NCBI GenBank assembly: GCA_018660265.1
Contig: JABJKS010000106.1
Coordinates: 1,144 to 65,143 of the forward strand
DNA length: 64,000 nt
Direction: 5' to 3'
Source of the DNA: Rhodospirillaceae bacterium
GTDB lineage: Bacteria; Pseudomonadota; Alphaproteobacteria; GCA-2731375
In this document: positions 3,929 to 41,798 of the stretch, one piece after another
Numbering within the stretch: the first letter of the stretch is position 1
Layout: the number at the start of each line of letters is the position of its first letter
Notes under the pieces: generated by a model
What the model was told of the DNA's origin: nothing
Seen by the model: only the letters and a program-made list of their open reading frames with translations
Database searches by the model: none
Program-made: the position numbers and the translations under genes

Positions 3929-3945
3929 GCTTGACCTCGGAGCGG

Positions 3946-4935: not shown

Positions 4936-5021
4936 TATCTATGTCCCCTTTGTCGTTTGAGCAATCTTAGCGTGCAATTTCCGTCGCGTCTGATTTTAGC
5001 ATGCGAATGTGAGAAGATCTC

Positions 5022-7518: not shown

Positions 7519-7962
7519 CTAAACGCCTGACGTGCGGCGTAGGGGTTCGAGGCGGAAGCTTAGGCGAACCCAGTTTTTCTGCAACCGGTCGCCGTCCATC
7601 AAATAGTGGGTGCGCAAGGCGGATATGTCGCGGTAGCAACGCTGTAAGGCTTCACCGTCGTTCATGGCACTGCTGCCACCGGCGATAAATAGAACATCCA
7701 CGACCTTTGCCGTTTACTCCACGCATTGTTGCAGCAGCATTTGCATATGGGCGCGTGTCCCGAAGGCACCCGGCGCAGCGCTTCGCATTCGTTGGCGCGG
7801 GCCCGCAAACCCGGGATCAGGTCGCGGGCCCGTTGGGGCATGACCTCAGAGCTTAGGTTCAGGTCAACTTCGTGGCTATGGTCCGCCCGGCATTGTCCCG
7901 TATTTCTAACCCCGCGACGGCAGTACCACCACGCCGGTGCCTTGGATCGATAGTTCATCATC
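7519..7962 (-). pseudogene. Degraded remnant of an acyl-CoA-dehydrogenase-like flavin monooxygenase: an N-terminal piece and a C-terminal piece, out of frame with each other
   Basis: The minus-strand ORFs encode LIPGLRARANECEALRRVPSGHAP, which is N-terminal-like, and VLFIAGGSSAMNDGEALQRCYRDISALRTHYLMD, which resembles the conserved C-terminal helix of ACAD-fold monooxygenases. There is no intact reading frame. Confidence 0.35.
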
Positions 7963-9060
7963 TTGCTGATGGGCCTTTTGGCTGATCTCTACACAATGGC
8001 GACCATCACCATCGATGAATTTATTGCTCACTTCGCCGTTGATATACAGCACGTCGCCTTCCGGGTTATGGCGGCGGATACGGGTTTTGTGGTTGGCCAG
8101 GAAACCGTCATCGCCCATCCAGTTGGTTAGGTGATGGGTCAGCCAGGAGACCCGCTCCGGCCCATAGTCATAGGCACCGGGGGCACCGACTTCGACTGCG
8201 AAATCGTTCTCCCAATGCACCCGCTCGGGGCAGTCGGGGATGTTAAAGCGGTTGGTAATGCCCAGGCCGGGATGTTTATGGATCTGTTGCCAGGCTAGTT
8301 TGTTGGCACGAATATAAAGCCCACCCCAACCTTGGGCATAGCAGATGAAGCCCGTGGCGGTCATGGGGCCTTTGAGCATCGTGGGTAACTTGTCGCCGAC
8401 GTTGACGTCTTCATAATAACGGGTTTCGCCACCCCGGATTTCTTCCTTGGCATAATGGCGATAGATATCCACCAGCTCTTCCTCGGTATAGCGCAGCTGG
8501 CCTTTTTTTGCGGCGTCATACTTGGTGCCGGCTTCCCGCGCCTTGTCGCGTTCCGTGCGGAAGCACCAGCTGTCGGCGCTGCAGATATTGTCGCCGTCCT
8601 GGTTATAGAATTCCACATGATAGACCTGCTCGATCGCGCGGCCTGAAAATTGTGTGTCGTGGGGGATCAGCTCCTTCAACCAGGCTTCACAATGGACTTC
8701 GTCATTGCGGTTTAGATGCTTATGCCAGTTCCAATCAGCCCCGGCCCACATGGCATGGATGCCGGGCAATCCGCCAACATAGCCGGAGATGATGCGGTTG
8801 GTCGCGAACAGAAATGAGGGCAAGGCGATCAGGCCGTCATATTTGGTCTTCGCGGCATATTCGGGATCACACCACAGGGGATTGTCGTCACCGATGCCGT
8901 GGGCATAGTGGCGGATGTTGTCCCGGGTTGCCTCGTAACACCACGGCTCCGGCATATTCTCGATCTTCACGCCGACGCGTTTTTGTAGATCTTCCAGGCC
9001 CCGTTCGGAGATTTTGGGGAACCGTCCCCCACTTTCGCTGGCTTGGCTTTCGTCGCTCAT
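7906..9060 (-). CDS. Double hot-dog (FAS1-like N-terminal plus MaoC-like C-terminal) acyl dehydratase/hydratase
   Basis: A 384 aa protein. It is a clear paralogue of 38660-39811, sharing RDxIRHxAxGxGDDNPLWxDxxYAAK and later blocks. It lies downstream of a CoA ligase in the same orientation. Confidence 0.7.
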   Translation of the reverse strand: MSDESQASESGGRFPKISERGLEDLQKRVGVKIENMPEPWCYEATRDNIRHYAHGIGDDNPLWCDPEYAAKTKYDGLIALPSFLFATNRIISGYVGGLPGIHAMWAGADWNWHKHLNRNDEVHCEAWLKELIPHDTQFSGRAIEQVYHVEFYNQDGDNICSADSWCFRTERDKAREAGTKYDAAKKGQLRYTEEELVDIYRHYAKEEIRGGETRYYEDVNVGDKLPTMLKGPMTATGFICYAQGWGGLYIRANKLAWQQIHKHPGLGITNRFNIPDCPERVHWENDFAVEVGAPGAYDYGPERVSWLTHHLTNWMGDDGFLANHKTRIRRHNPEGDVLYINGEVSNKFIDGDGRHCVEISQKAHQQDDELSIQGTGVVVLPSRG

Positions 9061-9063
9061 TGT

Positions 9064-10611
9064 CTACTCTCCTCTCGCGGCCGCTTCGCGGTCCCGCAGT
9101 ATTTTACGATTAACTTTGCCCGCCGGCGTCTTTGGCAACTCGTCCGCGAAGGCGACGATGCGGGGATATTCGTGACGGCTCAAATTCTCTTGAGCAAATA
9201 ATTGAAGTTCCTTGATAAAGCTGTCATCACCGTCCCGGTCGCTGATGATGAAAGCCTTGACGACGAGGCCCCGGATGTCGTCGGGAACACCGATCACGGC
9301 GGCTTCCAACACATCCGCATGTTTTAAAAGGGTATCTTCAATTTCCATTGCCGACATGGTCCAGCCGGCGGAAATGATGACGTCGTCGGCCCGCCCGCCG
9401 TGAAAAAAATAACCTTCGGCATCAATGTGCCCGCGATCCTTGGTGGGGAACCAGCCGTCCCGGCGCATGACCATGATCTCGCCCACTTCGTCCGGGGCGC
9501 AATGTTCACCCTTGGGGTTCAGAATGGCGACGTCCTGGCCGGGGATGGGCATGCCCAAAGATCCCAGTTTCGGCGGCAAATCCTCGGCCCCCGGATAACT
9601 ACCCAGCAGGACGCCAACTTCTGTTGTGCCGTAGAAACTGCACGGATACTGGCCAAACGTGGCCTTGGCCCATTCCGCCGTGTCCGTATCCATGGGTTCG
9701 CCGGTAAAGCTGACTTTTTCCAGGTTGAAGTTGTAATTGCCGGAGGTGCCGGCGTTTTTCATCATCCTGAAATGGGTTGCCGCCGCCGACAGATTGCTGA
9801 TCTCAAACTCTTCCAGGGCTGCCATCAACCGCTCCGGATCGAACTTGCCGGCATAAGAGGCCGTGGTAATGCCCAGAGCATGGGGCGACAGGGTGCCGTG
9901 CCAAAGACCATGCCCCCACGCGGTGGAGGAGGGGCACATGAAACGGTCGCCGGGCCTGGTGCCGGTGCCGTACAGGGCGGCCAGCATGACCGTGACAATG
10001 GATTGGTGGCGATGCTTCACGGCATCGGGCAATTCCCGCGTGGTGCCGGAAGTATATTGATACATCGCCATGTCACGGCCGGCGGTGGTCATTTCAAAGG
10101 CCGTATCGTAATTTTCAAGCATGGCCATGAAGTCATCATCTGCGATGGCCGTGTCGCAACCCGCATCTGCGGCCAAATCCGTCTTTTCAGGGGCCAACAG
10201 CAGGAATTTCGGCTGGCAGTCCCCAACCCGTAAACGCAACGCATCGGGGCCGAACAGGGTGAACATGGGCACCGCCACACAGCCGGCCTTCATGGCACCG
10301 TACAGGGCAATATAAAAATGCAATGACGGCTCTACCATCAGGGCAACCCGTTCGCCCGGCGCGATGTCCTGGGCGCGAAGATAGTTGGCGTAACGTCCCG
10401 ACCAGTCGGATATTTCGCCGAACGTGTAGCTTTCCGAACCACCTTCCGCCAAGGCAATCCGCACCGCCACGCGGTCCCGGGGGTGGCGTTCGATACATTC
10501 GTGGGCAATGTTCAGGGCCTCCCGATCGCCATCGAACAATTCCCAAAGTCTTTCTTTGGAACAGTGCTTTTGAGCGTCGGCGAATGAGGTGTAGTCGGTC
10601 AGCAGTGGCAT
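9064..10611 (-). CDS. AMP-dependent synthetase/ligase (acyl-CoA synthetase family)
   Basis: Contains the AMP-binding motif YTSGTTRELP (the YTSGTTG-type box) and a C-terminal PKTPAGKVNRK lysine motif. The start is placed at the ATG at 10611 (MPLLTDY). The ORF-track start at 10671 is a TTG that lies inside the operator motif. Confidence 0.8.
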   Translation of the reverse strand: MPLLTDYTSFADAQKHCSKERLWELFDGDREALNIAHECIERHPRDRVAVRIALAEGGSESYTFGEISDWSGRYANYLRAQDIAPGERVALMVEPSLHFYIALYGAMKAGCVAVPMFTLFGPDALRLRVGDCQPKFLLLAPEKTDLAADAGCDTAIADDDFMAMLENYDTAFEMTTAGRDMAMYQYTSGTTRELPDAVKHRHQSIVTVMLAALYGTGTRPGDRFMCPSSTAWGHGLWHGTLSPHALGITTASYAGKFDPERLMAALEEFEISNLSAAATHFRMMKNAGTSGNYNFNLEKVSFTGEPMDTDTAEWAKATFGQYPCSFYGTTEVGVLLGSYPGAEDLPPKLGSLGMPIPGQDVAILNPKGEHCAPDEVGEIMVMRRDGWFPTKDRGHIDAEGYFFHGGRADDVIISAGWTMSAMEIEDTLLKHADVLEAAVIGVPDDIRGLVVKAFIISDRDGDDSFIKELQLFAQENLSRHEYPRIVAFADELPKTPAGKVNRKILRDREAAARGE

Positions 10612-10663
10612 GGTGGGAACCCGAGTTGCGGCGAAGACAGAGAATTTTAGGATATCTCCAATA

Positions 10664-10698
10664 ATTGTCAATACGCAATAATATTGTCTATAGACAAT
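10664..10698. promoter_or_regulatory. Operator-like 35-bp motif, site 1: ATTGTCAATACGCAATAATATTGTCTATAGACAAT
   Basis: It contains an 18-bp perfect palindrome, TATTGTCTATAGACAATA. The site is centred in the divergent intergenic region between the CoA ligase and the thioesterase genes. It matches 40952-40986 at 30 of 35 positions. Confidence 0.6.
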
Positions 10699-10767
10699 AA
10701 CCGTGCTTGCTTTACCTCGAAACGAAGGGTGGTAACAAAGCCGTCCATAGCGTGCTATGAGAGGGGT

Positions 10768-12596: not shown

Positions 12597-12702
12597 GTGC
12601 CATAATTTTGACGCCACCAATTTGATACCGCAATTAGGTGATCACGATCACACCATCTTGTATGGTTACGGGTTAGTACTTGGTCGAAACCGGAGATTAA
12701 CC

Positions 12703-17077: not shown

Positions 17078-17089
17078 TTTCCGACACTA

Positions 17090-17121
17090 GACGAACAAGT
17101 TGGCGCCGCGTTTTAAACCGC
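17090..17121 (+). terminator. Intercistronic stem-loop between dctP and dctQ (ttggcgccgcg-loop-cgcggcgccaa followed by tttcg), a possible partial terminator or attenuator
   Basis: A perfect 11-bp inverted repeat with a U-tract. Such structures after the binding-protein gene are typical of TRAP and ABC operons. Confidence 0.5.
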
Positions 17122-17209
17122 GCGGCGCCAATTTCGTAATCCCCGGGCTATTGTTGTATGAAGCCCTATAACAGGGGTCTCCATGATGCCTGGGTCAAGG
17201 ATATAGATT

Positions 17210-17821: not shown

Positions 17822-17825
17822 GACG

Positions 17826-22950: not shown

Positions 22951-22963
22951 GAGCTGCTGTCTG

Positions 22964-27354: not shown

Positions 27355-27379
27355 TACGCTCCTACTACAAATTCAATCT

Positions 27380-28186: not shown

Positions 28187-30024
28187 GTCAGGTCCTCAGC
28201 GATTTGTTTTGATATAGGGATCGGGTGATCCAGCAATATTTGGGCATAACCTTTCGCCAGGGCGTCGTTGCGCAGGCTGGCAACACCGCCGCCGCCCAGG
28301 ACGTTGTGCAAAAAGAAATTAATGGCGTTGGGGCCGGGTAGGTAAAAGCGCTCTACCCCTCCTTCGAGGAAATGGCTGAAGCGATCGGCAACCGCGTCTT
28401 CATTCAGCGCCGCCCAGATATACGGCATGTATTCCGCCTTGCGGGCAATAATGCCTACATTGGCGTTGTTGCCTTTATCGCCACTACGGCCCCAGGCCAG
28501 CTCAATCAGCGGCACCGTCACCATTTCATCGCCGCTGGACGGCGCAGATGGTATTTCAGGGCGCTTCATATCTGCGGGGCCTGTTGTGGCGTCGGTGCCG
28601 GCATCAAACGAAGTCCGCCGGTCGCCAAAATCGATCTCGATGCCCAGGTCATCCTTTGGGATCAGAAAGGAAAACAGCCGGACCACGGGAGACGGCTTCG
28701 CCCTGGTGCCAAAGAAGCCTGATAGCCCAGGGGGAGATGACAAACCCATGCCGGCAGCTTCCTTCAGCAGAATGCCAATGCCGGCCTTATCCGGGTGCCA
28801 GGCGGCATATTTCACCACGACTTCCCGGGTATCATCGGCCCGTCCATGGCTGCCGAACTGGCTATCTGCGCCCAGAATTTCGATGCTGGTGTCAGTGAAG
28901 TCGCCCAGGTTCGATGCCCGCAGGACCGTGCGGGCCCGTTTAAATGTGGCCTCGGCAAAGGCCTGGCCCTTTCGCCGGGCATCGACACCATAGAAGGTCA
29001 TGTAGGACCCGGCCCGCCAGCCGTCGCTAAATGTGGCGCTGACTTTATAGCTGTCGGTGGCCGGGTACCCCTTGGCTCCACTAACATTCACCCGATCACT
29101 GGATACTTGGTTGATGGCTACGCCGGAAAAATCACAGACCACATCCGGCACGATATAGGCTTGCGGATCGCCGATTTCATAGATCATCTGTTCCGAGACT
29201 GTGCCGACATTGACGATGCCCCCTGTTCCAGGCGGTTTCGTGATATCAAAGCTGCCGTCGGGGTGAACCTCGCAAATGGGATAGCCGATGGTATCGATGG
29301 TCTCCACAGCCAGATGCCAGTCGGTAAAGTTCCCGCCCGTGGCCTGGGGACCACATTCCAGTAAATGTCCCGCCAATGTCCCGCCCGACAAATAATCCAC
29401 ATCGTTCGGACCCCAGCCAAATTCATGGATGCAAGCGCCCAACGTGACGGCACTGTCGACGGAGCGCCCGGTGATGACGATGTCCGCACCCTCGGCCAAA
29501 GCCTTGGCGATGGGAAATGCGCCTAGGTAGGCGTTGATGCTGACCAGATTTTCAGGATCGGGAAAGGCCTCACCGGAAAACATCTCCTTGGCGGTGACAC
29601 TGTCTTTTTGATCGATCAGGTCGTCTCCCAGAACGACCGCGACTTTTAAATCCAGGCCCTGTTCCGCGATCAGGGCGCGGGCGGCCTCTCCGCATGCGGT
29701 CGGGTTAACGCCACCTGCGTTGGAGATGACTTTCACATTCTGCCGGGCGATCTCACCCAGGTTCTGTTTTAGGACCACCGAAATGAAATCACGGGCGTAG
29801 CCCATTTTCGGATCCTGGGCCCGGGCCCGTGCCATGATCGACATGGTGACTTCCGCCAGATAGTCATAGACCAGATAGTCCAGGTCGCCGGCCAGATCGC
29901 CGGCCAGGTCGCCGGATTTCAACAATTGCGGCGTGGCCATGGCGCTATCGCCCCAATAACCGCTGGCACCGCCAATTCTGATGTTTGTTTTGCTCACGTT
30001 ACGGCTCTTTTCGAATTCATACAT
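28183..30024 (-). CDS. atuA: AtuA family protein (DUF1446, acyclic terpene utilisation-like)
   Basis: A 613 aa protein whose length and sequence character fit the DUF1446/AtuA family. It overlaps the downstream hydratase gene by 4 nt. Confidence 0.65.
   Translation of the reverse strand: MYEFEKSRNVSKTNIRIGGASGYWGDSAMATPQLLKSGDLAGDLAGDLDYLVYDYLAEVTMSIMARARAQDPKMGYARDFISVVLKQNLGEIARQNVKVISNAGGVNPTACGEAARALIAEQGLDLKVAVVLGDDLIDQKDSVTAKEMFSGEAFPDPENLVSINAYLGAFPIAKALAEGADIVITGRSVDSAVTLGACIHEFGWGPNDVDYLSGGTLAGHLLECGPQATGGNFTDWHLAVETIDTIGYPICEVHPDGSFDITKPPGTGGIVNVGTVSEQMIYEIGDPQAYIVPDVVCDFSGVAINQVSSDRVNVSGAKGYPATDSYKVSATFSDGWRAGSYMTFYGVDARRKGQAFAEATFKRARTVLRASNLGDFTDTSIEILGADSQFGSHGRADDTREVVVKYAAWHPDKAGIGILLKEAAGMGLSSPPGLSGFFGTRAKPSPVVRLFSFLIPKDDLGIEIDFGDRRTSFDAGTDATTGPADMKRPEIPSAPSSGDEMVTVPLIELAWGRSGDKGNNANVGIIARKAEYMPYIWAALNEDAVADRFSHFLEGGVERFYLPGPNAINFFLHNVLGGGGVASLRNDALAKGYAQILLDHPIPISKQIAEDLT
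29880..29915 (-). repeat. 3 x 12-bp in-frame tandem repeat (ccagRtcgccgg) encoding (DLAG)3 near the AtuA N-terminus
   Basis: Visible as ccaggtcgccgg ccagatcgccgg ccaggtcgccgg. Confidence 0.7.
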
Positions 30025-31354: not shown

Positions 31355-32971
31355 CTAATCCAACCCATCAGGCGTTATGAAGCCTTCGGCTAGATCAGCG
31401 TTAATCGCTGTTTGCGCGCGGTCTTTCGGATCGCCGAAACCACCCCCCCCCGCTTCAATCAGGGTGATACGGTCACCCGGCGCTAATTCATAGTGGCCTT
31501 TCGGGTCCACAGTGACATCGTTGACCCGGTGTTCCCTGGCCTGGCCGGGGGCACCGCCCATAAGGCCCAGGGGTGGAAACTCCGTCCGATTGGCCATACA
31601 AAAGACGGTCATCAGATGGCCGCTATCATTGCGGATCACCACCTCTTGGCCCAAACCGCCACGAAATTCCCCGGCCCCGCCTGAATTGGGCAGCAATGCC
31701 TTATGCTCGATGCTGGTGGAGGTCAGGGTCTCCCATACTTCAACCGGGACCACAGCCATATTGGACGGCCCGGGTGTCGTCTCCGCCCCGTCCATGCCGG
31801 CCAAGGCACCGAAACCACCGGAGGCGAAATAGATCGTTGAGACGTCATGGCCGTCCCGGTGTTTGCCCTGAAAGGTCATCAAATCCATCATGCCGCAATC
31901 GGCCTGAATGCTGTCGGGAACAGCCGCTGCCAAGGCACCAAAAACCAGGGGCGAGACGAAATGGCCGATCATATGGCGCGCACCGGTGGCTGAAGGGGGC
32001 TGGGCATCCAGCAGGCAACCGGTTGGTGCGGTGACGGTGATGGGCACCACAGAGCCGCCATTGTTGGGCAATTCGGGCACGGTCAGACACTTCATGGAAT
32101 ACAGCACCATGGCGCGGGTATAACAAAACGGTACGTTGATGCCCCGGCGCACGCAGGGATCGGTGCCGGTGAAATCGACACTCATGGTATCGCCGGTGAT
32201 CTCTATTGAACAAGCCAGGGTCAACGGGCCATCCACGCCCTCTATCTGAATTTCGTTCTGATAGATGCCATCGGCCATATCGGCGATGCGCAGGCGGGTC
32301 GCCGCCTCGGACCGGCCGCGAATTTCACCGGACAGGTCCGCAAAATCCGGCAGATCGAATTCATTGAGAAAATCCGTCAACATGGTCTCGCCGGCCTTGG
32401 TCGCGGTGACATTGGCCATCAGATCACCGATAACTTGATCAGGTGCCCGCACATTGGTCCGCATCAATTCGATGATGAAATCGTTCTGCAGGCCGGCGTC
32501 GAACAATTTGCAAACCGGCAGGCGCAGACCTTCGTGATAGATCTCCCGCGCTGCCGCGCCAAAACCCAAACCACCAATGTCGGGTAAATGGGTGATGGAA
32601 ATGACGTAGGCAACGATAGTGCCGGCAAAGAATATTGGCCGCATGACATTGATATCGAACGTATGCCCGGTGCCCAACCAGGGATCGTTGGTGATCACCA
32701 CATCGCCGGGCTGCAGGCTGTCGGCGGGATAGACATCCAGCATATGCTGCAGGGTTGCAGGCGCGGTGCCCATGAAAACCGGTACGCTGTAGGTGCCCTG
32801 GGCCATCAATTGACCTTGCGCATCCAGCAGGGCGACGGTCAGATCATAACTTTCGCTTACGATGGTGGAGAATGATGTGCGTACCAACGTCGATACAATT
32901 TCGTCGGAGACCGCAACCAGCCGATCCCACATGATGCCGACGCTGACGGCGTCCAAGGTTTTGGCGGTCAT
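31355..32971 (-). CDS. hyuB: Hydantoinase B/oxoprolinase family subunit (HyuB-like), second copy
   Basis: A 538 aa protein with Hydantoinase_B conserved blocks. It overlaps the upstream hyuA by 4 nt. Confidence 0.85.
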   Translation of the reverse strand: MTAKTLDAVSVGIMWDRLVAVSDEIVSTLVRTSFSTIVSESYDLTVALLDAQGQLMAQGTYSVPVFMGTAPATLQHMLDVYPADSLQPGDVVITNDPWLGTGHTFDINVMRPIFFAGTIVAYVISITHLPDIGGLGFGAAAREIYHEGLRLPVCKLFDAGLQNDFIIELMRTNVRAPDQVIGDLMANVTATKAGETMLTDFLNEFDLPDFADLSGEIRGRSEAATRLRIADMADGIYQNEIQIEGVDGPLTLACSIEITGDTMSVDFTGTDPCVRRGINVPFCYTRAMVLYSMKCLTVPELPNNGGSVVPITVTAPTGCLLDAQPPSATGARHMIGHFVSPLVFGALAAAVPDSIQADCGMMDLMTFQGKHRDGHDVSTIYFASGGFGALAGMDGAETTPGPSNMAVVPVEVWETLTSTSIEHKALLPNSGGAGEFRGGLGQEVVIRNDSGHLMTVFCMANRTEFPPLGLMGGAPGQAREHRVNDVTVDPKGHYELAPGDRITLIEAGGGGFGDPKDRAQTAINADLAEGFITPDGLD

Positions 32972-35037
32972 GATCCTGCCTCCAACTCCGCGATCAGATT
33001 GCCGAACTCATCCACTTCGACCTTATCACCAGGGCCAATTACAACGGTGGATTCCCGTTCTTCGATCAAGGCAGGCCCATCTATGACCGCGCCCATGGCC
33101 AAGCTATAGCGGTCATAGACCAGCGTCGTCATATAATCTTCACCAAAATAGGCCTGACGGCTCCCCTTGGGCCTCGCCGTGCCTTGTGCATCAGGTGCTG
33201 CTGTCGTCAACTCCGGGGCGGTTGCCGTGGCTTCCACCTTCCAGGTCGTAATGACCAAAGGTGCATCCAGTAATGCCGCGCCGTGTACAGTGGCGTAATG
33301 ATCCCGGAAGATATCCGGTAATGCCCCAATATCCGAACCTGTGGGCAGGGTAACCTCTATCTCGTGGCCCTGGCCGTGATAACGCATGTCCAGCCGTTGG
33401 ATGACCGACAAATCCGTGCCGGCGCTCTGCAATGGTGCCTTTGCCTCAATTTCCAGGTCCGCCAGGGTGGCCGCGAAATCCTCGGCGCTTAGGTCCGCGA
33501 CAAAGGCCTGTTTGGTGCGCGCAACTTCAAACGTCAAGGGGCTGGCCAGCAATCCCAGGGCGGACATGACACCGGCGGCGACGGGGAATATCACCCGTGG
33601 AATGCCCAGTTTGCGGGCCACGCCCATGGCATGCACCGGGCCGGAACCGCCAAACGCCACCATGGAGCTGCCGCGATAGTCAAAACCGCGTTCCGAGGCG
33701 TGAATGCGAAAGGCCCGCGCCACATCTTCATCAACAATTTCGTGAATCCCCCAAGCCGCCCGCGCCAGGGATAGCTTCAGCGGCCCCGCGATTTGCGTTT
33801 TGATCACCTGTTCGGCGGCGGCCACATCCAATGCCATGGCACCGCCGAGAAAGAAATTCGGGTCCAGATAACCCAGCACCACATTGGCATCGGTCAACGT
33901 AGCGGCCTGACCGCCCTGGCCATAGCAGGCGGGCCCTGGATCGGCGCCTGCACTATGCGGCCCGACACGAATTGTGCCGCGTACATCGACCGCGGCGATA
34001 GAGCCACCGCCTGCACCGATCTCGATCATATCAATGACCGGGCTTTTCACGGGCAGACCGCTGCCGGCCTTAAAATCGTGCACCCGGGCGACTTCCTGGA
34101 AATAGACCTTGATGGCTTCGCCGCCACGTATCAGGGCGCCCTTGGCGGTGGTGCCCCCCATATCGAACGACAGCAATTCCGGGCGCTTTAGGGCCCGGCC
34201 ATGAAAGGCAGACATTTGCGCGCCTGCCGCCGGGCCGGATTCAATAACCCGGGCCGGAAACTTTCGTGCCGTTTCAGGTGTCAACGTGCCGCCGCTGGAA
34301 GACATCACGAACAACTGCCCGGCAAATCCCAGATCATTCAGACCGCTTTCCAAGCGTCGTAGATATTGATCGAACATGGGCTGGGTAAAGGCATTGATGC
34401 ATGTGGTGGTGAACCGTTCATATTCACGCCATTCCGGGCAGACCTCCGATGACAGGGATATGTTCAGGTCAGGAAAAGTCGCCGCCGCCATGTCTCCCAG
34501 GGCCCGCTCGTGATCAGGATTGGCATAGCCATGGAGGAGACATATGGCCAGCGACGTGATGCCCTCGCGGCGCACAAGGTCCGCCAACGTCGCCCGCGCT
34601 GCGTCCAGATCCAGGGTTTGTTCGATGGTGCCGTCATAATGCACCCGTTCCGCGACCTCAACCCGGCGGCGGCGCGGCACCAGGGGTTCGGGGAAAACCA
34701 GACGCAGATCGAACACGTCGTATCGTTTCTCCTGGCGCATATCCAGGATGTCGCGAAAGCCTGCCGTGGTCAGCATACCGGTGACAGCGCCCTTACGCTC
34801 GATCACCGCATTGGTTACCAGGGTGGTGCCATGGACGATTTCGACCACGGGGGATAAATCAAGGCCCTGTTGGCCCAGCAACGCCATCGTACCTTCCAGC
34901 ACGGCGCGGGCGGGGTCATCGGGTGTGGTGAGCTGTTTATGGATGGCAAAACTGCCGCCTGCCTCGTCATAGAGGGCGAAATCAGTGAACGTACCGCCGA
35001 TATCGATGCCCAGTCGGTAGGTGGAGCGGGCGGCCAT
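32968..35037 (-). CDS. hyuA: Hydantoinase/oxoprolinase family A subunit (HyuA-like), second copy
   Basis: The N-terminus is LGIDIGGTFTDFALYDEAGG. 689 aa. Confidence 0.85.
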   Translation of the reverse strand: MAARSTYRLGIDIGGTFTDFALYDEAGGSFAIHKQLTTPDDPARAVLEGTMALLGQQGLDLSPVVEIVHGTTLVTNAVIERKGAVTGMLTTAGFRDILDMRQEKRYDVFDLRLVFPEPLVPRRRRVEVAERVHYDGTIEQTLDLDAARATLADLVRREGITSLAICLLHGYANPDHERALGDMAAATFPDLNISLSSEVCPEWREYERFTTTCINAFTQPMFDQYLRRLESGLNDLGFAGQLFVMSSSGGTLTPETARKFPARVIESGPAAGAQMSAFHGRALKRPELLSFDMGGTTAKGALIRGGEAIKVYFQEVARVHDFKAGSGLPVKSPVIDMIEIGAGGGSIAAVDVRGTIRVGPHSAGADPGPACYGQGGQAATLTDANVVLGYLDPNFFLGGAMALDVAAAEQVIKTQIAGPLKLSLARAAWGIHEIVDEDVARAFRIHASERGFDYRGSSMVAFGGSGPVHAMGVARKLGIPRVIFPVAAGVMSALGLLASPLTFEVARTKQAFVADLSAEDFAATLADLEIEAKAPLQSAGTDLSVIQRLDMRYHGQGHEIEVTLPTGSDIGALPDIFRDHYATVHGAALLDAPLVITTWKVEATATAPELTTAAPDAQGTARPKGSRQAYFGEDYMTTLVYDRYSLAMGAVIDGPALIEERESTVVIGPGDKVEVDEFGNLIAELEAGS

Positions 35038-36632
35038 CAGCGATTGTCCGGCAATACGTCGATGGCATCGCCAACGCCGCGCTCTCGCAATTCATGGCGG
35101 GCGATTTCATTCTTGGTCATGGTACGGGGAAAATCTGCGACGAACTCCATATAACGGGGGACCTTGAAAAAGGCGATGCGATCCTGACACCATTCCACCA
35201 GCTCCATTGGTTCCGGCGTCGCCTCGTCCTCCGACAGCTGGATGTAGGCTTTGATGTCTTCTTCGCCAATGTCCGATGGCACGCCGACGACGGCGCAGTC
35301 GATCACGGCAGGGTGGGCCGTCATTGCCTTTTCCACTTCGAAGGCGGAGACGTTTTCGCCCCGACGGCGGATCCAGTGGGCCTCCCGTCCAACGAAATAG
35401 AGAAAGCCATCGTCGTCCAGATAACCCAGATCACCACTGTGGTACCAAAGGTTCTTCCAGGCCGCCAAAGTCTCGGTCGGTTTGTTGATATACTCGATCA
35501 TGTAAGTGTTGGGTACTTTGGGGCGCAGGAGGATCTGCCCGGTGGTGTTCGCCGGCACCGGGTTGTCGTCCGCATCCACGATCATCACCTCTGTCCAGCC
35601 GTGGGGCCGGCCACAGGAACCAAGACGGCGATCAAAGGTCCGCTCGCTACAGATCAGCACGCCCATCTCGGTCATGGAATAGACTTCCATCATGGGTGTG
35701 CCGAAACGTTCCTCAAACTCATCGCGCAGATCCCGGCGCACCTGGCCGGCGGCAATGCCAACGCCGATGCGAACTTTATGGTTCTTATCCTGATCGGATG
35801 CAGGGGCCCGCAACAACACCGCCATCATGGTGCCCAAGGGATCGATGACCGTGACGCCATATTTGCGGATAATCTTCCAGTAGTTGGAGGCCGAGAACCA
35901 TTTTTCCATGATCCCGGTCATGCCGAGATAAAGGGGGGAGGTGATGGCGAATTGCTGACCGCCAATATGGAAGAAATGTGAATTCGCAAAATGCACATCG
36001 TCCTCCGTCGCCTCGGCAATATCGCCATAGCGGATCGCGGCGGCGATATAATACAGATGCGACACCAAAACACCCTTGGGCATGGACGTGCTGCCGCCCG
36101 TATAGACGATGCACATAGGGTCGGCGGCGGCGACGTCGGCATCAGGCAGGGTTTCATCATCGCCCATCAGATCGCTAAAGGGCAGGGTGCCGGGACCGGG
36201 AACGGCGGCCACATCGCCCAGGACCAGGACCTCCGGATCGCCGGTCAGGTCCGGTTTGGCGGCGTTATAGGCAGGGGCCAGTTCTTCATCCACCACCAAC
36301 AGCTTTGCGCCGGTGTCGTTCAGGCTGTAACACATATCATCCTTGACCAGGCTGACATTCAGGGAGGCGTAGATCGCGCCGATCTTTGCACAGCCGAACC
36401 AGATCAAGGCCTGTTCAAGGGAATTGTACATCAGGGTGGCGACCACATCGCCCTTGCCGATACCGTGGGCCAGCAGGCGATTGGCGACCTTGTTTGACAG
36501 ACGGTCGGCGTCTGCGTATGTCAGCGTTTCATCACGGCAGATCAGATAGGGTTTGTCGCCATAGCTGGCGCGCATGACGATCAGGTCGCGCAAGGTTGTT
36601 GCGTGGGGTGTGCGGCCAAGGATATCGATCAT
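35037..36632 (-). CDS. AMP-dependent synthetase/ligase (acyl-CoA synthetase family)
   Basis: Contains the AMP-binding box IVYTGGSTSMPKGV and a C-terminal lysine. 531 aa. Confidence 0.8.
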   Translation of the reverse strand: MIDILGRTPHATTLRDLIVMRASYGDKPYLICRDETLTYADADRLSNKVANRLLAHGIGKGDVVATLMYNSLEQALIWFGCAKIGAIYASLNVSLVKDDMCYSLNDTGAKLLVVDEELAPAYNAAKPDLTGDPEVLVLGDVAAVPGPGTLPFSDLMGDDETLPDADVAAADPMCIVYTGGSTSMPKGVLVSHLYYIAAAIRYGDIAEATEDDVHFANSHFFHIGGQQFAITSPLYLGMTGIMEKWFSASNYWKIIRKYGVTVIDPLGTMMAVLLRAPASDQDKNHKVRIGVGIAAGQVRRDLRDEFEERFGTPMMEVYSMTEMGVLICSERTFDRRLGSCGRPHGWTEVMIVDADDNPVPANTTGQILLRPKVPNTYMIEYINKPTETLAAWKNLWYHSGDLGYLDDDGFLYFVGREAHWIRRRGENVSAFEVEKAMTAHPAVIDCAVVGVPSDIGEEDIKAYIQLSEDEATPEPMELVEWCQDRIAFFKVPRYMEFVADFPRTMTKNEIARHELRERGVGDAIDVLPDNR

Positions 36633-36647
36633 GGTTGTGCCTCTGCT

Positions 36648-38663
36648 TTATTCAAAATGTCCGGCGATGCCAACAACGCCTGCCGCCTTTAACGAGTCTA
36701 TCTCATCATCCGGCAGGGAGAGAACCCGGCGCAAGACGAAATCATCGCCCTCCCCCAACAGCGGTGCCGTCTTGCGCAGGCCGGGGCGATGGCTGTTAAC
36801 CCGCCAAGGGGCAGCGACCAGGGCCTCATCCCCCGTGTAGGGGTGGGTGGAGGATATCCAACCGGAACAGTCCGCAAATACTGCCGAATTGTCGGTCTCA
36901 TCCAGTTCCAACAAATCTGCCCAGTGCCCGCCTAATGCGGTGCAGCGCTCAACAATATCAGCCCGGCTTAAACCCTCGAAATTTTCATCAGCGGCATCGC
37001 AGGGCACGGAGACGGCAATGAAAGATCCGTCTTTTGCCGTGACGATGGCATCACGGGTCGCGAGCGGTGGTGTCGGGGTTGCCGCCAATGTCGCGGCGGC
37101 CTCAATTTGGGAGACGTCAAAGGCCCGGCCCGTGCCGTCTTCTCCCGCAGCCAGGACGCCCGCCAGGAGGCCCATAGCCCCGAAGGCAGCTGCGTTGGGG
37201 TCGGAGAGGGAGAATGTGGGGGAGCCTAGGAATTCGCCGTCCTTGGTGATCAAATCCTCTGCCCCGCCCAGGGCGCTGAGCACCAGGCCGTAAGATCGCA
37301 GCTTTTCCACGGCTGAGCCTCGGCCGGGCCCGCTCATGGACATTTGTACCAAGGTCGGGTTGGCCTGAGCAAGATCGTCGGGACCCAGGCCAAGGCGCTC
37401 CATTGTGCCGACGGTGAAGTTCTCGATCAACAGATCGGACACGGCGGCCAGTTCCAGGGCCGTCTTGCGACCGTCGGGATGTTTCAGGTCAAGGGCCAGG
37501 CCGGTTTTGTTGCGGTTCAGGCTATGGAAATACAGGGAAGATTCGATGCGGGCCTTTTCCGGCATTTTTTTGCGCAGGGCTTCCAGGCCACGGGTGCGGT
37601 AGAGGTCAAAACGCCCAGGCGCTTCCATCTTGATGACTTCGGCTCCAAGGTCAGCCAGGATTTGACCGACCATGGGCCCAGACCAGACCCAGCACAATTC
37701 CAGACAACGCAGGCCCGCCAGGGGCGAACCGGCGACATCGTCATGTACACGCCGCTGCCGGTCCCGCGCTGCACCACCCGTCAGGGGTTGGATTTGGAAC
37801 GGCATCGCCGGTATGTCGTCAACAATGAAATTGTCGCGAAAAACGTCCCGGGCGGCAGCCTCCGCCTGACTATAGACCGGCGCGATCACAGCACCTTCGG
37901 CCAGGCCCCGTTGCAGCAACTCGTCCCGGCCCAAAGCCGACAAGGTGCCTTCCAGCAACCGGTCCGCCGCCGCACTGTCCCGCGCCAACACGAAAGGGTC
38001 CTGATAGGCTTCACCTTTGGCCCAGTCAGGATCGCCAACGGCTTTGCGGATGTTGTGCCAATCCCGCCGCGACCGTCCCAATAAGGCCACATAGCCATCT
38101 TTACAGGCGTAGAACCCCATGGGAAAGATGCCGCCGTGCTCAACGCACAGGCGACCATTGCGTCGCCAGGAGCGGACCATTTCTTCTGGCCCGCCGGAAT
38201 TTTGCAGGGAGAAGGAGCGCATAATATCGGCGGCGGAGACATCGTAGCGAACAGGCTTGCGCGCTTTGCCGTTGCCATTGCCATTTCGTTGCCGCCAGAC
38301 TTCAGCCAATGCCAGGATCACGCCATAGATACCGCACCATTTTTCGGGCATGTCGCTGGGCAGGGGGACGCCGGGGCCCCCTTTGTGACCAATCACGGCC
38401 GCGGCCCCTGATACAGCCGAGGCCAAGGCACCGGTGCCCGGATGCCCGACCTGGTAATCCCAAAGACGAATGACACAGTTGGCATCAGATGCCGTATCCC
38501 CGCCGACGACGGCAATATCCGTATCAGCCACGGCGGCATCGTCCCCGCCACCCAACATTCGCAGCCATTGCCGTGCGTAGGAGGTTGAGCGGTTGCTGGC
38601 AGTTACCGTAATTTCTGCTGCCGCTGAAAGGGGAACCTGTCTTGTTTTGCAGTCCTGGCTCAT
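36648..38663 (-). CDS. CoA-transferase family III (CaiB/BaiF-like), double-length 671 aa form
   Basis: The C-terminal half contains LRCLELCWVWSGPMVGQILADLGAEVIKMEAPGRFD, the CoA-transferase III N-terminal motif. The N-terminal half is divergent but of similar size. Confidence 0.7.
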   Translation of the reverse strand: MSQDCKTRQVPLSAAAEITVTASNRSTSYARQWLRMLGGGDDAAVADTDIAVVGGDTASDANCVIRLWDYQVGHPGTGALASAVSGAAAVIGHKGGPGVPLPSDMPEKWCGIYGVILALAEVWRQRNGNGNGKARKPVRYDVSAADIMRSFSLQNSGGPEEMVRSWRRNGRLCVEHGGIFPMGFYACKDGYVALLGRSRRDWHNIRKAVGDPDWAKGEAYQDPFVLARDSAAADRLLEGTLSALGRDELLQRGLAEGAVIAPVYSQAEAAARDVFRDNFIVDDIPAMPFQIQPLTGGAARDRQRRVHDDVAGSPLAGLRCLELCWVWSGPMVGQILADLGAEVIKMEAPGRFDLYRTRGLEALRKKMPEKARIESSLYFHSLNRNKTGLALDLKHPDGRKTALELAAVSDLLIENFTVGTMERLGLGPDDLAQANPTLVQMSMSGPGRGSAVEKLRSYGLVLSALGGAEDLITKDGEFLGSPTFSLSDPNAAAFGAMGLLAGVLAAGEDGTGRAFDVSQIEAAATLAATPTPPLATRDAIVTAKDGSFIAVSVPCDAADENFEGLSRADIVERCTALGGHWADLLELDETDNSAVFADCSGWISSTHPYTGDEALVAAPWRVNSHRPGLRKTAPLLGEGDDFVLRRVLSLPDDEIDSLKAAGVVGIAGHFE

Positions 38664-39811
38664 GCGGGCGCGAGCGGTAATGGAACGGGGCCATCCTGTC
38701 GTGAGGGCAAAGCAACCACGGCTGTGCCCGAGGCCGATAACAAGTCAGATTGATTGCGGGCTTCTACTTTTAGATCGAGGAACTTGGCAGCGCCCACCTC
38801 CCGTTTGCCCAGAACTTCGCCACGCCACCAGATCGTATCGCCGACCATGTTCGGCTGCAGCACATTGACTTTTAGTTGATGCAGAAAGCCGTGATCGCCG
38901 ATCCAGTTGGTCAGCATGTGCTGGCCCCAGGCGATACGTTGTGGCCCGACGTCATAGGCCCCGCCCATGCCGACGTCCCGGCCTGTTGAGGCCTCCAAAT
39001 GGCCGCGCCCGGCGGAATCCTTGGCACCTGTTTCCGCATTGATATGGTAATCGTCGTGGCGGCGGCGATAGCGCAAGGCATCGCCATGCACCCCACCATA
39101 ATGCAACGCGCCTTGGGCGGCGGCATACCAGGCCAGGATATCGGTGATGGTCAACGGACCCTTGATAACGGGGGGTACATGGGCACCCACGTCCACATCT
39201 TCCCAATATAAGGGTACGTTCCCTTGCCGGGGTTCGGCTAGAACCTGTTCTTCAATGTCCGCCAGTTCCGCCGGTTCATAGCGATAAGCCACATGGCCTT
39301 TGGGTTCTTCACCGTCCTTACGTTTGCGACCGTCGCCACGGGGCGTGCGGGCGCATTTTCCGATGGCCTCGGCGATCAGATTTCCGTCCTGGTTCCGATA
39401 AGACAGGGCACCGGTCTGTAACGCCCATTTGCCAAACCGGCGGCCGGTCTTCACCTCCTGCTTGATCAGTTTGACATCAATTTTGAAGCTGTCGTTGATG
39501 CGGATATGGTCGTACCAGGTCCATTCCGTACCGGCATAGATCCATTGCACCCCGGCCAATTTTGGTGCCACGATTGTGCAGTCCACGGCGTAAAGTATGC
39601 AGGGCGGGGCCAAAATTGTACCTGCAGGAGATTTAGCGGCATAGTCCGCATCAAACCACAGGGGATTGTCGTCGCCGACGCCCCAGGCGAAATGGCGGAT
39701 GGTGTCCCGCGTGGTGGCCTCAATCCACTGCATACGGTCGCGGCGCAGGGGCACACCGATCAATTCAGCCGCCGCTGCCAGGGTCTCATCGTTTATCTGC
39801 CCCCAAGTCAT
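38660..39811 (-). CDS. Double hot-dog (FAS1-like plus MaoC-like) acyl dehydratase/hydratase, a paralogue of 7906-9060
   Basis: A 383 aa protein that shares conserved blocks with the 7906-9060 product. Confidence 0.7.
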   Translation of the reverse strand: MTWGQINDETLAAAAELIGVPLRRDRMQWIEATTRDTIRHFAWGVGDDNPLWFDADYAAKSPAGTILAPPCILYAVDCTIVAPKLAGVQWIYAGTEWTWYDHIRINDSFKIDVKLIKQEVKTGRRFGKWALQTGALSYRNQDGNLIAEAIGKCARTPRGDGRKRKDGEEPKGHVAYRYEPAELADIEEQVLAEPRQGNVPLYWEDVDVGAHVPPVIKGPLTITDILAWYAAAQGALHYGGVHGDALRYRRRHDDYHINAETGAKDSAGRGHLEASTGRDVGMGGAYDVGPQRIAWGQHMLTNWIGDHGFLHQLKVNVLQPNMVGDTIWWRGEVLGKREVGAAKFLDLKVEARNQSDLLSASGTAVVALPSRQDGPVPLPLAPA

Positions 39812-39839
39812 GTCGTCACCTGCCTATTTTCTCCACCGG

Positions 39840-40889
39840 TTAGCTTTGGACATGGGGCATGACTTCTTTGGCGAACAGACGCAGCATATCCAGGCACTGT
39901 TGCACCCCATAGTAGGGCGGGTAATGCAGCATCAGGGAGGTGACGCCGATTTTCTCCAGCTCTTTAATGCGGCGGATCACGGTGTCGGGAGAGCCATGGA
40001 TAATGGTGGTATCCACCAAATTGTCGTAGGCAAACTGTGAAGCGTCATCTTTTTCCGTGACATCACCTAAATATCCGGCGGTATCACCCGACAGAAATGT
40101 CTTCATATGATAGGTGATGGCCGCCTCGCTCTCCTCCTTAGCCTTGGCATCGGTGGCTGCGACATAGACCATGCGGACAACGTCAAACTGTCCAAATGCC
40201 GGGTTCTGGTTTAGGGGTGCGGGTGCCGTTTTCATATGTTTTTGATAAAATTCGATGTTCTTGCCCAGCACCTCAATTGAAGGCAGAGAGCCCTGCATCA
40301 GGCCAAAGCCTTTTTCCGCTGCTAATTGCATAGAGTTTTCCGTGCCCGCGCCCATGAAAAAAGGCGGGTGGGGCCGTTGGACAGGTTGCGGGAAAATCTC
40401 GTAGCTTTCATCCATCTTGAACTTGAAGAATTTGCCGTCGGAATTGACCCGTTTTTTGTGGAAACCGTCCAATATCAGGTCTACCGCTTCGGCCTGACGC
40501 TCCCGCCGGCTGTCAAAATCAACACCCAGACCTTCGAATTCATATGGCCGATAGCCGGAACCAAGGCCCAACTGAAAGCGCCCCTCGCTCAAAATATCAA
40601 CAAAGGCGGCGTTTTCCACAATGCGCATGGGATGGTGCAAAGGCACCACCATTACTGCCGCCCCCAGTTTGATCCGCGTCGTTTTCGCGGCGAGATAGCT
40701 GAGATAGGCAAATGGATCCGGCATAATGCCGTAACGGTTGGAAAAATGATGCTCGGCGATCCAGATGCTATCAAAGCCTAATTCCTCGGCCTCAACGATT
40801 TCCCGTGTTACCCGCTCATGAATGGCTTGATGGGGGTAGACCTCTGTCTCCGGGTCCGGGTGGGACGTGAACAAAATACCAAACTTCAT
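39840..40889 (-). CDS. LLM-class (luciferase-like) flavin-dependent monooxygenase/oxidoreductase
   Basis: A 349 aa TIM barrel with the LLM signature (FDSIWIAEHHF). It is the first gene of the minus-strand operon. Confidence 0.8.
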   Translation of the reverse strand: MKFGILFTSHPDPETEVYPHQAIHERVTREIVEAEELGFDSIWIAEHHFSNRYGIMPDPFAYLSYLAAKTTRIKLGAAVMVVPLHHPMRIVENAAFVDILSEGRFQLGLGSGYRPYEFEGLGVDFDSRRERQAEAVDLILDGFHKKRVNSDGKFFKFKMDESYEIFPQPVQRPHPPFFMGAGTENSMQLAAEKGFGLMQGSLPSIEVLGKNIEFYQKHMKTAPAPLNQNPAFGQFDVVRMVYVAATDAKAKEESEAAITYHMKTFLSGDTAGYLGDVTEKDDASQFAYDNLVDTTIIHGSPDTVIRRIKELEKIGVTSLMLHYPPYYGVQQCLDMLRLFAKEVMPHVQS

Positions 40890-40951
40890 TTTGGTGCTTC
40901 CTCTATTTGCATCAACCTGACAGCAGCAAAATCATTATGGAACTGGACATA

Positions 40952-40986
40952 GTTGTCAATGTGCAATACTGTTGTCTATAGACAAT
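40952..40986. promoter_or_regulatory. Operator-like 35-bp motif, site 2: GTTGTCAATGTGCAATACTGTTGTCTATAGACAAT
   Basis: It has the 14-bp perfect palindrome TTGTCTATAGACAA at its core. It lies 12 to 46 nt upstream of the iclR start and inside the divergent promoter region of the LLM operon. Confidence 0.6.
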
Positions 40987-40997
40987 GGAATGACATA

Positions 40998-41798
40998 ATG
41001 ACCAATGCCGATGGGGCACGATCACAATCGAAATCATCAGGGGCCCCGGGGTCTGCAGGCCCCGCACGGCCCGTCACGGCGGTAAGCCGTGCTGCCAGCA
41101 TACTACGCTATTTAGGGCGTAGTCAGGTACCCCTGGGGGTCAATCGTATTGCCAGGGATTTGGATATTATCCCCAGCACGGCCCTGCATATCTTGCGCAC
41201 GTTGGCGCATGAAGATTTGGTGGTTTTTGATCCCAATACAAAGCGCTATGGACTTGGTGTCGGCGTTTTGGGTATCGCCCGCAACATGTTGGGCGGTAGT
41301 GGTTTTGTACAGGCGGCACAGGGCCATCTGAACGCCATTGCCGCGGAATTCGATATGGCTGCCATTGCCGTGGAATTGGACAGTCATGACCATATGGTGG
41401 TGACGGCTTTGGCGCGCTCCGGACTGGATCTGAGTATCCATGTCAATATTGGCAGCCATTTCCCGGCCTTGATTTCCGCGACGGGACGCTGCATCGCCGC
41501 CCAGCGCAACTGGGACCGGAAAGAATTGGCCGGGCGGTTCAAGGATTTACGCTGGCAGAACCCGCCGTCGTTCGAGGTTTGGCTGGAGGAGATTGAGGCG
41601 GCCCGTCGGAACGGCTTTGCCATTGATGACGGCAATTATATTCGGGGCATCATCATCGTGGCCGCACCCATTACCCAACCCCCAGGGGCACCCAGCCGGG
41701 CCATTGTTGCCGTCGGCGTGACCGGGCAGCTGGACGCTGGCCAACGCCAGACCCTGGCGCAAAAACTGCGGGCGGCAGCCGACAGTCTAGCTGCTTAG
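40998..41798 (+). CDS. IclR family transcriptional regulator
   Basis: The N-terminal HTH region (RAASILRYLGRSQVPLGVNRIARDLDIIPSTALHILRTL) and the C-terminal effector domain are typical of IclR proteins. Confidence 0.8.
   Translation: MTNADGARSQSKSSGAPGSAGPARPVTAVSRAASILRYLGRSQVPLGVNRIARDLDIIPSTALHILRTLAHEDLVVFDPNTKRYGLGVGVLGIARNMLGGSGFVQAAQGHLNAIAAEFDMAAIAVELDSHDHMVVTALARSGLDLSIHVNIGSHFPALISATGRCIAAQRNWDRKELAGRFKDLRWQNPPSFEVWLEEIEAARRNGFAIDDGNYIRGIIIVAAPITQPPGAPSRAIVAVGVTGQLDAGQRQTLAQKLRAAADSLAA

Follow-up and report, generated by a model that had tools for sequence, protein, structure and literature searches.

Which genes answer to a transcriptional regulator whose gene stands beside one catabolic operon, while its likely binding site stands beside two? 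The question is raised by a stretch of 64,000 nucleotides from a Rhodospirillaceae bacterium, an uncultured marine alphaproteobacterium (contig JABJKS010000106.1; hereafter, the window), which encodes a regulator of the IclR family and in which a palindromic motif directly in front of iclR recurs, at a distance of 30 kb, within a second gene cluster. Locus 1 comprises the genes of an AMP-ligase (Lig1) and a MaoC-type protein (MaoC1) together with a divergently transcribed thioesterase (TE) and an MBL-fold hydrolase; locus 2 comprises iclR and a divergent operon that starts with a luciferase-like monooxygenase (LLM) and continues with MaoC2, a family-III CoA-transferase (CoAT), a second AMP-ligase (Lig2), HydA2 and HydB2 (for coordinates, see Table 1). 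A first-pass annotation of the window had proposed that the motif is a candidate auto-operator of IclR and that the two loci are co-regulated parts of one undescribed catabolic pathway. From the comparison with related loci, it is probable that IclR acts as a repressor of both loci and of its own gene through a bipartite operator, and that this wiring arose after relocation of iclR from locus 1.

The mechanism itself is that of a standard IclR system with a regulator of ordinary type. Its value lies in providing a concrete regulator–operator pair for a large, uncharacterised family of acyl-CoA-processing operons in soil, freshwater and marine bacteria, for which, with a predicted operator at hand, the substrate can be sought via effector screening. 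Furthermore, the window is a clear case of regulon evolution by movement of a regulator gene together with its operator.

A predicted bipartite operator at two loci

The regulator combines an N-terminal winged helix-turn-helix (HTH) and a C-terminal effector-binding domain within the length of about 250–280 aa that is typical of the IclR family. In Pfam, HTH_IclR (PF09339) covers residues 28–79 (38.2 bits; cutoff 22) and IclR_C (PF01614) residues 103–264 (52.7 bits; cutoff 24), and the solved relatives of the protein are all IclR-family members. The identical protein is annotated in public assemblies as the 266-aa form starting with ATG; an earlier start at 40952/3 corresponds to an upstream TTG of the open frame, which coincides with site A of the predicted operator. 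The score for the PcaR/PcaU/PobR subfamily (TIGR02431) does not reach the cutoff (62.8 versus 284.75 bits), and also the best NCBIfam equivalog, BhcR (NF045644), stays below it (67.3 versus 350 bits). iclR is the sole IclR-like gene in the window, where no second copy or remnant was found, including in a tblastn search for an iclR remnant at locus 1.

The region around the iclR start reads ATTATGGAACTGGACAtagTTGTCAATGTGCAAtactgTTGTCTATAGACAAtggaatgacataATGACC. It contains a perfect 14-nt palindrome (TTGTCTATAGACAA) ending 12 nt before the in-frame ATG, the distance given in the first-pass annotation. The second copy, which had been placed upstream of Lig1-MaoC1, is exact and lies in the spacer between the ligase and TE genes. 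At both loci, this palindrome (site B) is accompanied by an imperfect element (site A) that the first-pass annotation did not mention and the start of which lies 19 nt upstream of that of site B (TTGTCAATGTGCAA at locus 2 and TTGTCAATACGCAA at locus 1); hence, the predicted operator is bipartite and 33 nt long. In it, an AT-rich spacer of 5 nt separates site A (TTGTCAAT-N3-CAA) from the palindromic site B, with the two centres 19 bp apart.

Allowing up to three mismatches, the palindrome has five matches in the window versus 0.78 expected, a number that none of 100 shuffles reached; the matches at 49147 and 51481 are located inside coding regions and correspond to chance level. A weight matrix built from 18 other species, from which the window was excluded (maximum 61.1 bits), detected only two sites in the 64 kb, one at 10665 (59.7 bits) and the other at 40953 (52.0 bits); the next match reached 9.5 bits, and shuffled sequences no more than 8.3 bits. 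When the matrix is restricted to site B, the locus-2 copy attains the maximum of 26.0 bits. The 9.5-bit match is a weak bipartite-like sequence (GTTGTCATTGACAAcaatgTTGTGCTTATACAA; 13162–13194) inside the 3' part of an RcnB-like open reading frame (ORF; 12529–13251). It could be a degenerate third site or a chance match and is treated as unproven. Scans of the window for Rfam families and tRNAs were empty, so that an RNA element is no alternative.

The two operator copies do share ancestry via relocation of iclR, as set out below, which might suggest that they are merely the neutral leftover of a segmental duplication, or the end of a mobile element, without a regulatory role at locus 1. This is barely credible, given that the conservation between the copies is limited to the 33–38 nt of the operator. 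They differ at 4/33 positions, while the 25 nt to the left are only about 40% identical, and a self-comparison of the iclR cassette within the window returned the operator as the only other significant match (38 nt, 87%, E 6e-7). Moreover, the locus-1 copy, which scores close to the maximum of the cross-species matrix, occupies the orthologous position in all relatives, and neither a transposase nor terminal repeats were seen near the copies.

Association of the operator with iclR in related loci

The comparison covered 87 loci with IclR relatives of 45–88% identity, namely six orthologous genome loci and another 81 iclR loci, of which 80 came from a metagenome scan that used an IclR alignment as seed and one was L019; 10 additional loci were fetched through neighbouring proteins. 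A site was scored when TTGT-N6-ACAA, with at most one mismatch in the arms, occurred within 200 nt upstream. This outer-arm criterion was used instead of a stricter palindrome criterion, which counted 57/81 and thereby undercounted. iclR is divergent from a Lig1 orthologue in 59 of the 87 loci and from an LLM orthologue (LLM-MaoC2-CoAT-Lig2) in five; the site is present in 59/59 and 5/5, respectively, at a background density of 0.06 per 200 nt. It accompanies iclR in 64/64 informative loci from soil, freshwater and marine sources, with exactly one bipartite site per 20-kb locus in the relatives. Lig1-MaoC1 pairs without iclR (L101–L103) and LLM operons without iclR (L014–L018), which served as negative controls, are devoid of the site. 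The co-occurrence of this IclR, the loci and the motif, which had been suggested as a check on the initial proposal, is thus found across related genomes.

Every marine orthologue has the same upstream order, that is, TGGACA, 4 nt, site A, 5 nt, site B and then iclR. In distant relatives (45–56% identity; soil, freshwater and sediment), site B drifts to TTGTATATATACAA or TTGTACATAGACAA, and a TTGTACAA- or TTGTCAAT-like site A is found 19–21 nt away from it, which leads to the consensus TTGT[C/A][T/C]ATA[G/T]ACAA with a second site at a distance of 19–21 nt. Matching this conserved operator, the HTH region is near-invariant across the aligned IclR proteins, including the LLM-type paralogue introduced below. 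In Parapusillimonas granuli (L100) and in L091, iclR is located at the end of the Lig1 operon, and the palindrome precedes Lig1 rather than iclR, in the same geometry with site B followed by TTGACAA. This implies that the operator goes with the Lig1 promoter and with the occurrence of this IclR.

The palindrome, which in all informative loci is kept either beside iclR or at the promoter of Lig1 and which is absent without iclR, is supported as the operator of this IclR subfamily, in line with its initial designation as an auto-operator. Since both window loci carry near-consensus bipartite copies, a two-locus regulon is the best reading of the data.

Could the palindrome belong to another transcription factor, such as one of the GntR type, and stand near iclR by coincidence? 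The core is similar to GT-N-AC motifs, and the TTGT...ACAA arms are reminiscent of GntR-family half-sites. Still, this is very unlikely, considering that Pfam detected no other HTH regulator among the window ORFs of at least 150 aa, and that the site follows iclR in all informative loci, is missing where iclR is missing and moved together with it.

Proposed relocation of iclR and probable control of both loci

In the marine loci L007–L012 and in 14 further ones, the gene order is MaoC1 ← Lig1 ← operator → iclR → TE → MBL. Locus 1 of the window contains the same genes and the operator as those 20 loci, however, without iclR; a remnant of the iclR–TE spacer (GCGTGCTATGA) persists at 10750–10760. 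In a neighbour-joining tree with 200 bootstraps, the window IclR, together with those of L020 and L023, is nested in the marine clade, all other members of which come from a locus-1 context. Bootstrap support amounted to 200/200 for the marine clade, 199/200 for this clade excluding L012, 190/200 for the window with L020 and 160/200 for the window with L020 and L023, while the window group was joined to the LLM-type IclR clade in 0/200 replicates. L020 represents a second species (88% identity) that shares both the arrangement LLM <> iclR >< MoL and the operator. Where relatives have retained iclR at locus 1, their MoL and LLM genes are separated by a spacer of 156 nt, which includes a conserved promoter-like block (TTGACC) and neither operator nor iclR. 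In the window and in L020, the homology to this spacer stops about 25 nt before the LLM ATG, and from about 40930 onwards, the window matches the relatives' Lig1–iclR intergenic region (ATTATGGAACTGGACA...).

It is because of the synteny in marine relatives, the nested position in the tree and the homology at the junction that we propose a relocation. According to these comparisons, the ancestral order would be that of the marine loci, with Lig1-MaoC1 (7906..10611) as the ancestral divergent target operon of this IclR; iclR would have moved with its promoter and operator from locus 1 to the MoL–LLM spacer, replacing the native LLM upstream region, and would have gone from locus 1, where the operator copy stayed behind. 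The proposed co-regulation of the two loci is, thus, well supported in silico as a two-locus regulon, but the wiring is lineage-specific, given that the closest relatives with iclR at locus 1 have an LLM operon without iclR and operator.

An association between IclR and the LLM operon exists also outside this lineage. A separate clade of IclR paralogues (L019, L034, L035 and L039; about 56% identity) is encoded divergently from LLM-MaoC2-CoAT-Lig2 orthologues (the L039 locus ends after MaoC2) and is accompanied by the same palindrome. This LLM-type clade (bootstrap support 200/200) has the Lig1-type L036/L037 as its sister group. The place that the LLM-type paralogue takes elsewhere is occupied, in the window lineage, by a single IclR of the locus-1 type; as in distant bacteria the LLM operon is under a paralogous IclR with the same operator, the relocation would have returned the operon to the same type of control. 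L035 and L037 are located on one 1.8-Mb contig (WLWD01000040.1), about 240 kb apart, so that both module types, each with its own IclR paralogue, are present side by side, with near-identical operators (TTGTCTGTAGACAA and TTGTCTATATGCAA/TTGCCAATTGACAA); cross-talk between these two paralogues is plausible. Given their independent occurrence and the separate IclR paralogues, the two modules are to be seen as parallel units and not demonstrably as steps of one pathway; in this respect, the idea of a single catabolic pathway is unproven.

How the operator could act is suggested by its position relative to predicted promoters. At both loci, the reverse complement of site A holds a perfect -35 hexamer (TTGACA) facing the minus-strand operon. 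In a consensus scan, the only promoter-like element facing LLM is the one with its -35 inside site A; a CATAAT near the LLM-side -10 is found at shorter spacing, and the exact -10 is uncertain. The putative iclR promoter was read from the sequence, the consensus scanner making no call there, and marine orthologues have TGGACA and an AT-rich hexamer (TATTAT or TAATAT) at the same positions. Transcription of the plus strand is predicted to start inside site B. The overlap of sites A and B with core promoter elements of the divergent units fits repression by occlusion along with autorepression. Binding as a tetramer, repression by occlusion of RNA polymerase and autoregulation have been described for TtgV, IclR and PcaR (bioRxiv 10.1101/2023.07.27.550818).

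In the proposed mechanism, IclR would recognise the 33-nt operator with its two sites, presumably as a dimer of dimers, for which the 19-bp centre spacing is suited, as in other IclR repressors. Site A would cover the -35 hexamer of the minus-strand promoters of Lig1-MaoC1 and LLM-MaoC2-CoAT-Lig2-HydA2-HydB2, whereas site B would lie between the likely -10 and the start codon of the plus-strand gene, serving TE-MBL at locus 1 and iclR at locus 2. Most likely, the protein represses all four transcription units, the regulator's own gene included. This repression would be lifted by a small-molecule effector, probably either a CoA thioester from the pathway or the carboxylic acid that serves as its substrate.

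Members of the IclR family may repress, activate or do both, with PcaR being an activator as well as an autorepressor (bioRxiv 10.1101/2023.07.27.550818). By analogy with PcaU/PcaR, the protein might bind the same operator to activate or dually regulate the catabolic promoters, while repressing only its own gene. Site B, at about -50 to -60 of the Lig1 and LLM promoters and, thus, upstream of the -35, is in a position typical of activators. We regard this as unlikely, however, because site A directly overlaps the -35 hexamers, which are already perfect, and a locus-1 promoter with 11/12 consensus matches should need no activator.

It is distinctly improbable, too, that the locus-2 operator serves the autoregulation of iclR only, its adjacency to LLM reflecting no more than the site at which the cassette was inserted. 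It is true that the LLM operon of close relatives has neither iclR nor operator, and that L023 keeps iclR beside MoL, lacking the LLM–Lig2 genes as well as the operator. On the other hand, the conserved upstream region native to LLM has given way to the insertion, with homology left over only about 25 nt before the ATG; the sole promoter-like element facing LLM has its -35 in site A; L020 retains the arrangement with the operator; and the independent lineages of L019, L034, L035 and L039 have the orthologous LLM operon subject to an IclR paralogue that is encoded divergently and comes with the same palindrome.

Several points weigh against repression of both loci by the relocated regulator. 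Its support is comparative throughout, and the position of a site alone cannot separate repression from activation. Furthermore, the -10 on the LLM side is weakly assigned. Because HTH peptides served as seeds in the metagenome scan, the sample represents the subfamily sharing this recognition helix, and the window covers 64 kb of the genome, with a second IclR paralogue being possible elsewhere. Since the LLM operon of the closest relatives is not under this operator, the control of locus 2 is a recent acquisition and may be incidental. Finally, L023, a member of the relocated clade, has iclR beside HydA2 without a recognisable operator. This locus (Ga0233428_1000002, ~3829–6750) is arranged as HydA2 <> iclR >< MoL and lacks LLM-MaoC2-CoAT-Lig2, which suggests that a later deletion took the operator away.

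Enzymes of the predicted regulon and gene neighbourhood

The features of the two loci are collected in Table 1.

Table 1. Coordinates of the regulator gene, predicted control elements and genes of the two loci in the window.
Feature	Position	Strand	Remarks
iclR coding sequence	40998..41798	plus	266 aa, ATG start; Pfam HTH_IclR and IclR_C
Putative relocated cassette (iclR promoter, operator, iclR)	40930..41798	plus	~870 bp, between MoL and LLM, antisense
Predicted operator site A, locus 2	40953..40966		Imperfect; 19 nt upstream of site B, start to start
Predicted operator site B, locus 2	40972..40985		Perfect 14-nt palindrome; 12 nt 5' of iclR ATG (40998)
Predicted operator site A, locus 1	10665..10678		Imperfect; 19 nt upstream of site B, start to start
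Predicted operator site B, locus 1	10684..10697		Identical to locus-2 copy
Predicted Lig1 promoter	-35 TTGACA 10666-10671; -10 TAAAAT 10644-10649	minus	16-nt spacer, 11/12 consensus matches
Predicted LLM-operon promoter	-35 TTGACA 40954-40959; -10 AATGAT 40931..40936	minus	17-nt spacer, 10/12 matches
Putative iclR promoter	40944..40972	plus	TGGACA 40944-40949, 17-nt spacer with site A, TACTGT 40967-40972 in A–B spacer
Lig1, AMP-ligase	9064-10611	minus	Locus 1; Pfam
MaoC1	7906-9060	minus	Locus 1; Pfam
TE, double-4HBT thioesterase	10768-11715	plus	Locus 1, divergent from Lig1; Pfam, NCBIfam
MBL-fold lactonase-like hydrolase	11712-12596	plus	Locus 1; Pfam, NCBIfam
Locus-2 operon divergent from iclR	31355..40889	minus	Gaps -4 to 28 nt; Pfam, NCBIfam, ORF coordinates
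LLM, luciferase-like monooxygenase	39840-40889	minus	Locus 2
MaoC2	38660-39811	minus	Locus 2
CoAT, 671-aa tandem family-III CoA-transferase	36648-38663	minus	Locus 2
Lig2, AMP-ligase	35037-36632	minus	Locus 2
HydA2, caprolactamase-like	32968-35037	minus	Locus 2
HydB2, caprolactamase-like	31355-32971	minus	Locus 2

The two loci had been described as carrying paralogous gene pairs. This applies to MaoC1 and MaoC2, true paralogues that align along their entire length with 34% identity (E 5e-65), but not to the ligases, where the relationship of Lig1 and Lig2 (23% identity) is at superfamily level only. There is no equivalog-level match in NCBIfam for IclR, Lig1, Lig2, MaoC1, MaoC2, CoAT, LLM, the thioesterase, the MBL-fold hydrolase or AtuA. 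Lig1 is closest to acetate- and short-branched-chain-CoA ligases, and the third-best match of Lig2 is a crotonobetaine/carnitine-CoA ligase, all below cutoff.

MaoC1 belongs to a family of more than 5,300 clusters (at E ≤ 1e-40) with generic names only; sequences from Alphaproteobacteria, Alcaligenaceae and other phyla share about 70% identity. Both MaoC proteins match PF13452 above the cutoff and PF01575 weakly, and a sequence search of the PDB with MaoC1 returned only a marginal match and, hence, no solved relative. The structure model of MaoC1 is a double hotdog of moderate quality (pLDDT 69.6), which Foldseek relates with probability 1.00 to MaoC-like dehydratases, MeaC, PaIch and hydratase 2 of MFE-2; the nearest structures are uncharacterised mycobacterial dehydratases (5i7n, 4v12), followed by mesaconyl- and itaconyl-CoA hydratases, at 10–18% identity. 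Model and Foldseek search agree on the fold and gave no pointer to a substrate. The hydratase-2 motif is G-D-x-N-P-[LIV]-H with catalytic Asp and His. In both MaoC paralogues and 13 homologues, it reads G-D-D-N-P-L-W, with the Trp being invariant in 15/15 sequences. Another catalytic residue or the second hotdog may serve in place of the motif His; the conserved region around H282/E284/D298/H309 is modelled with low confidence.

The core conserved set consists of a ligase, MaoC, (in part) a family-III CoA-transferase, IclR and a hotdog thioesterase. By analogy with the Cai and Bai systems, its composition suggests that the ligase primes a small acid with CoA and the transferase recycles the CoA around a (de)hydration. 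With CaiB/CaiC/CaiD (carnitine) and BaiB/BaiF (bile acid), the regulated modules share an ANL ligase, a family-III CoA-transferase and a hydratase-fold enzyme; however, the hydratase here is a 384-aa MaoC double hotdog and not a crotonase, and the type of regulator differs. MeaC/Mch (mesaconyl-CoA hydratase) and PaIch (itaconyl-CoA hydratase), which are often paired with family-III CoA-transferases, have the double-hotdog MaoC fold and are among the best structural matches (8hgn, 4e3e, 8huc, 8khg), but identity is only 10–13%, and MaoC1 differs by its GDDNPLW motif with the invariant Trp.

On the side of the regulator, TtgV, IclR and PcaR/PcaU/PobR are comparable in domain architecture and in having palindromic operators that overlap divergent promoters; autoregulation and tetrameric binding belong to the description of these regulators as well (bioRxiv 10.1101/2023.07.27.550818). 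The differences are the score of the window IclR below the PcaR/PcaU/PobR subfamily cutoff and its operator sequence, which was not found in the literature searched. BlcR (AttJ) of Agrobacterium tumefaciens, the repressor of blcABC (PDB 3mq0), is the second-best solved relative (E 1.7e-8), with likewise a winged HTH and IclR_C. As a dimer of dimers, BlcR occupies a pair of neighbouring inverted repeats, from which a small acid releases it, and it controls an operon that includes an MBL-fold lactonase. Similarly, an MBL lactonase-like gene follows the locus-1 operator. Yet the similarity to BlcR is low (38 bits), the operator sequence is another one, tetramer binding of the window IclR is conjectural, and the targets are CoA-ligase, MaoC and CoA-transferase here versus lactonase and dehydrogenases for BlcR.

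Literature searches for the combinations IclR/MaoC/CoA-transferase/ligase, LLM/MaoC/hydantoinase/IclR/AtuA and IclR/MaoC/CaiB/TctC yielded no described system. A full-text search for operator sequences corresponding to the consensus returned nothing relevant, and for the AcuN/AcuK acrylate route, considered for the ligase/MaoC/CoA-transferase triad, a literature search gave no link to MaoC-type enzymes. Together with the lack of NCBIfam equivalogs, this is consistent with the view that the pathway is undescribed, although it amounts to absence of evidence only.

A broader interpretation, which we put forward tentatively and do not favour, is that the IclR–operator pair marks a very widespread, functionally undescribed catabolic module for a small carboxylic acid and that the window displays a rewiring which merged two parallel pathways into one regulon. 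The module may be composed of a short-chain-type AMP-ligase, an unusual MaoC protein with Trp for His, often a family-III CoA-transferase, and a hotdog thioesterase; with MaoC retaining about 70% identity between marine Alphaproteobacteria, Alcaligenaceae and Acidobacteria-like metagenome-assembled genomes, the module may be very widespread. In the rewiring, regulator and operator may have been put onto a paralogous operon (LLM-MaoC2-CoAT-Lig2-lactamase) that had lost its own paralogous regulator.

Some features of individual genes and of the neighbourhood are worth recording. CoAT is a tandem of two partial family-III domains, in which residues 73–285 align to profile positions 130–333 and residues 315–529 to positions 1–205; L100 encodes an ordinary CoA-transferase of 399 aa within its Lig1-type operon. 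HydA2 and HydB2 contain only Hydantoinase_A and Hydantoinase_B domains according to Pfam and score 462.8 and 197.9 bits against the CapA/CapB equivalogs, for which the cutoffs are 1000. They form one of two paralogous hydantoinase A/B pairs (19200–22950, plus strand; 31355–35037, minus strand; about 40% and 33% identical), both closest to the caprolactamase CapA/CapB, far below cutoff; the first pair comes after a TRAP transporter, and the second forms the 3' end of the LLM operon.

Downstream of the LLM operon and on the same strand, the stretch 25780–30024 (minus) encodes AtuA (458 bits), a crotonase (156 bits versus a cutoff of 426 bits for gamma-carboxygeranoyl-CoA hydratase) and a carboxyltransferase. 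Neither a biotin carboxylase nor an acyl-CoA dehydrogenase was seen adjacent to it; judged by its gene content, the set resembles the acyclic terpene utilisation (Atu) pathway but is incomplete, considering that this pathway comprises, besides AtuA, both subunits (alpha and beta) of geranyl-CoA carboxylase, an acyl-CoA dehydrogenase and isohexenylglutaconyl-CoA hydratase.

On the plus strand, a PLP enzyme (14033–15034) scores 448.3 bits against the NCBIfam model of the D-cysteate sulfo-lyase CuyA (cutoff 450) and is syntenic downstream of iclR-TE-MBL in L008–L012. Near it, a TRAP transporter (15995–19124) and an alanine-racemase-like gene (22829–24064) are encoded, both on the plus strand. A pathway of cysteate racemase and D-cysteate sulfo-lyase is known (PMC11193023); considering the CuyA-like PLP enzyme, the racemase-like gene and the TRAP transporter, the neighbourhood may deal with organosulfonates.

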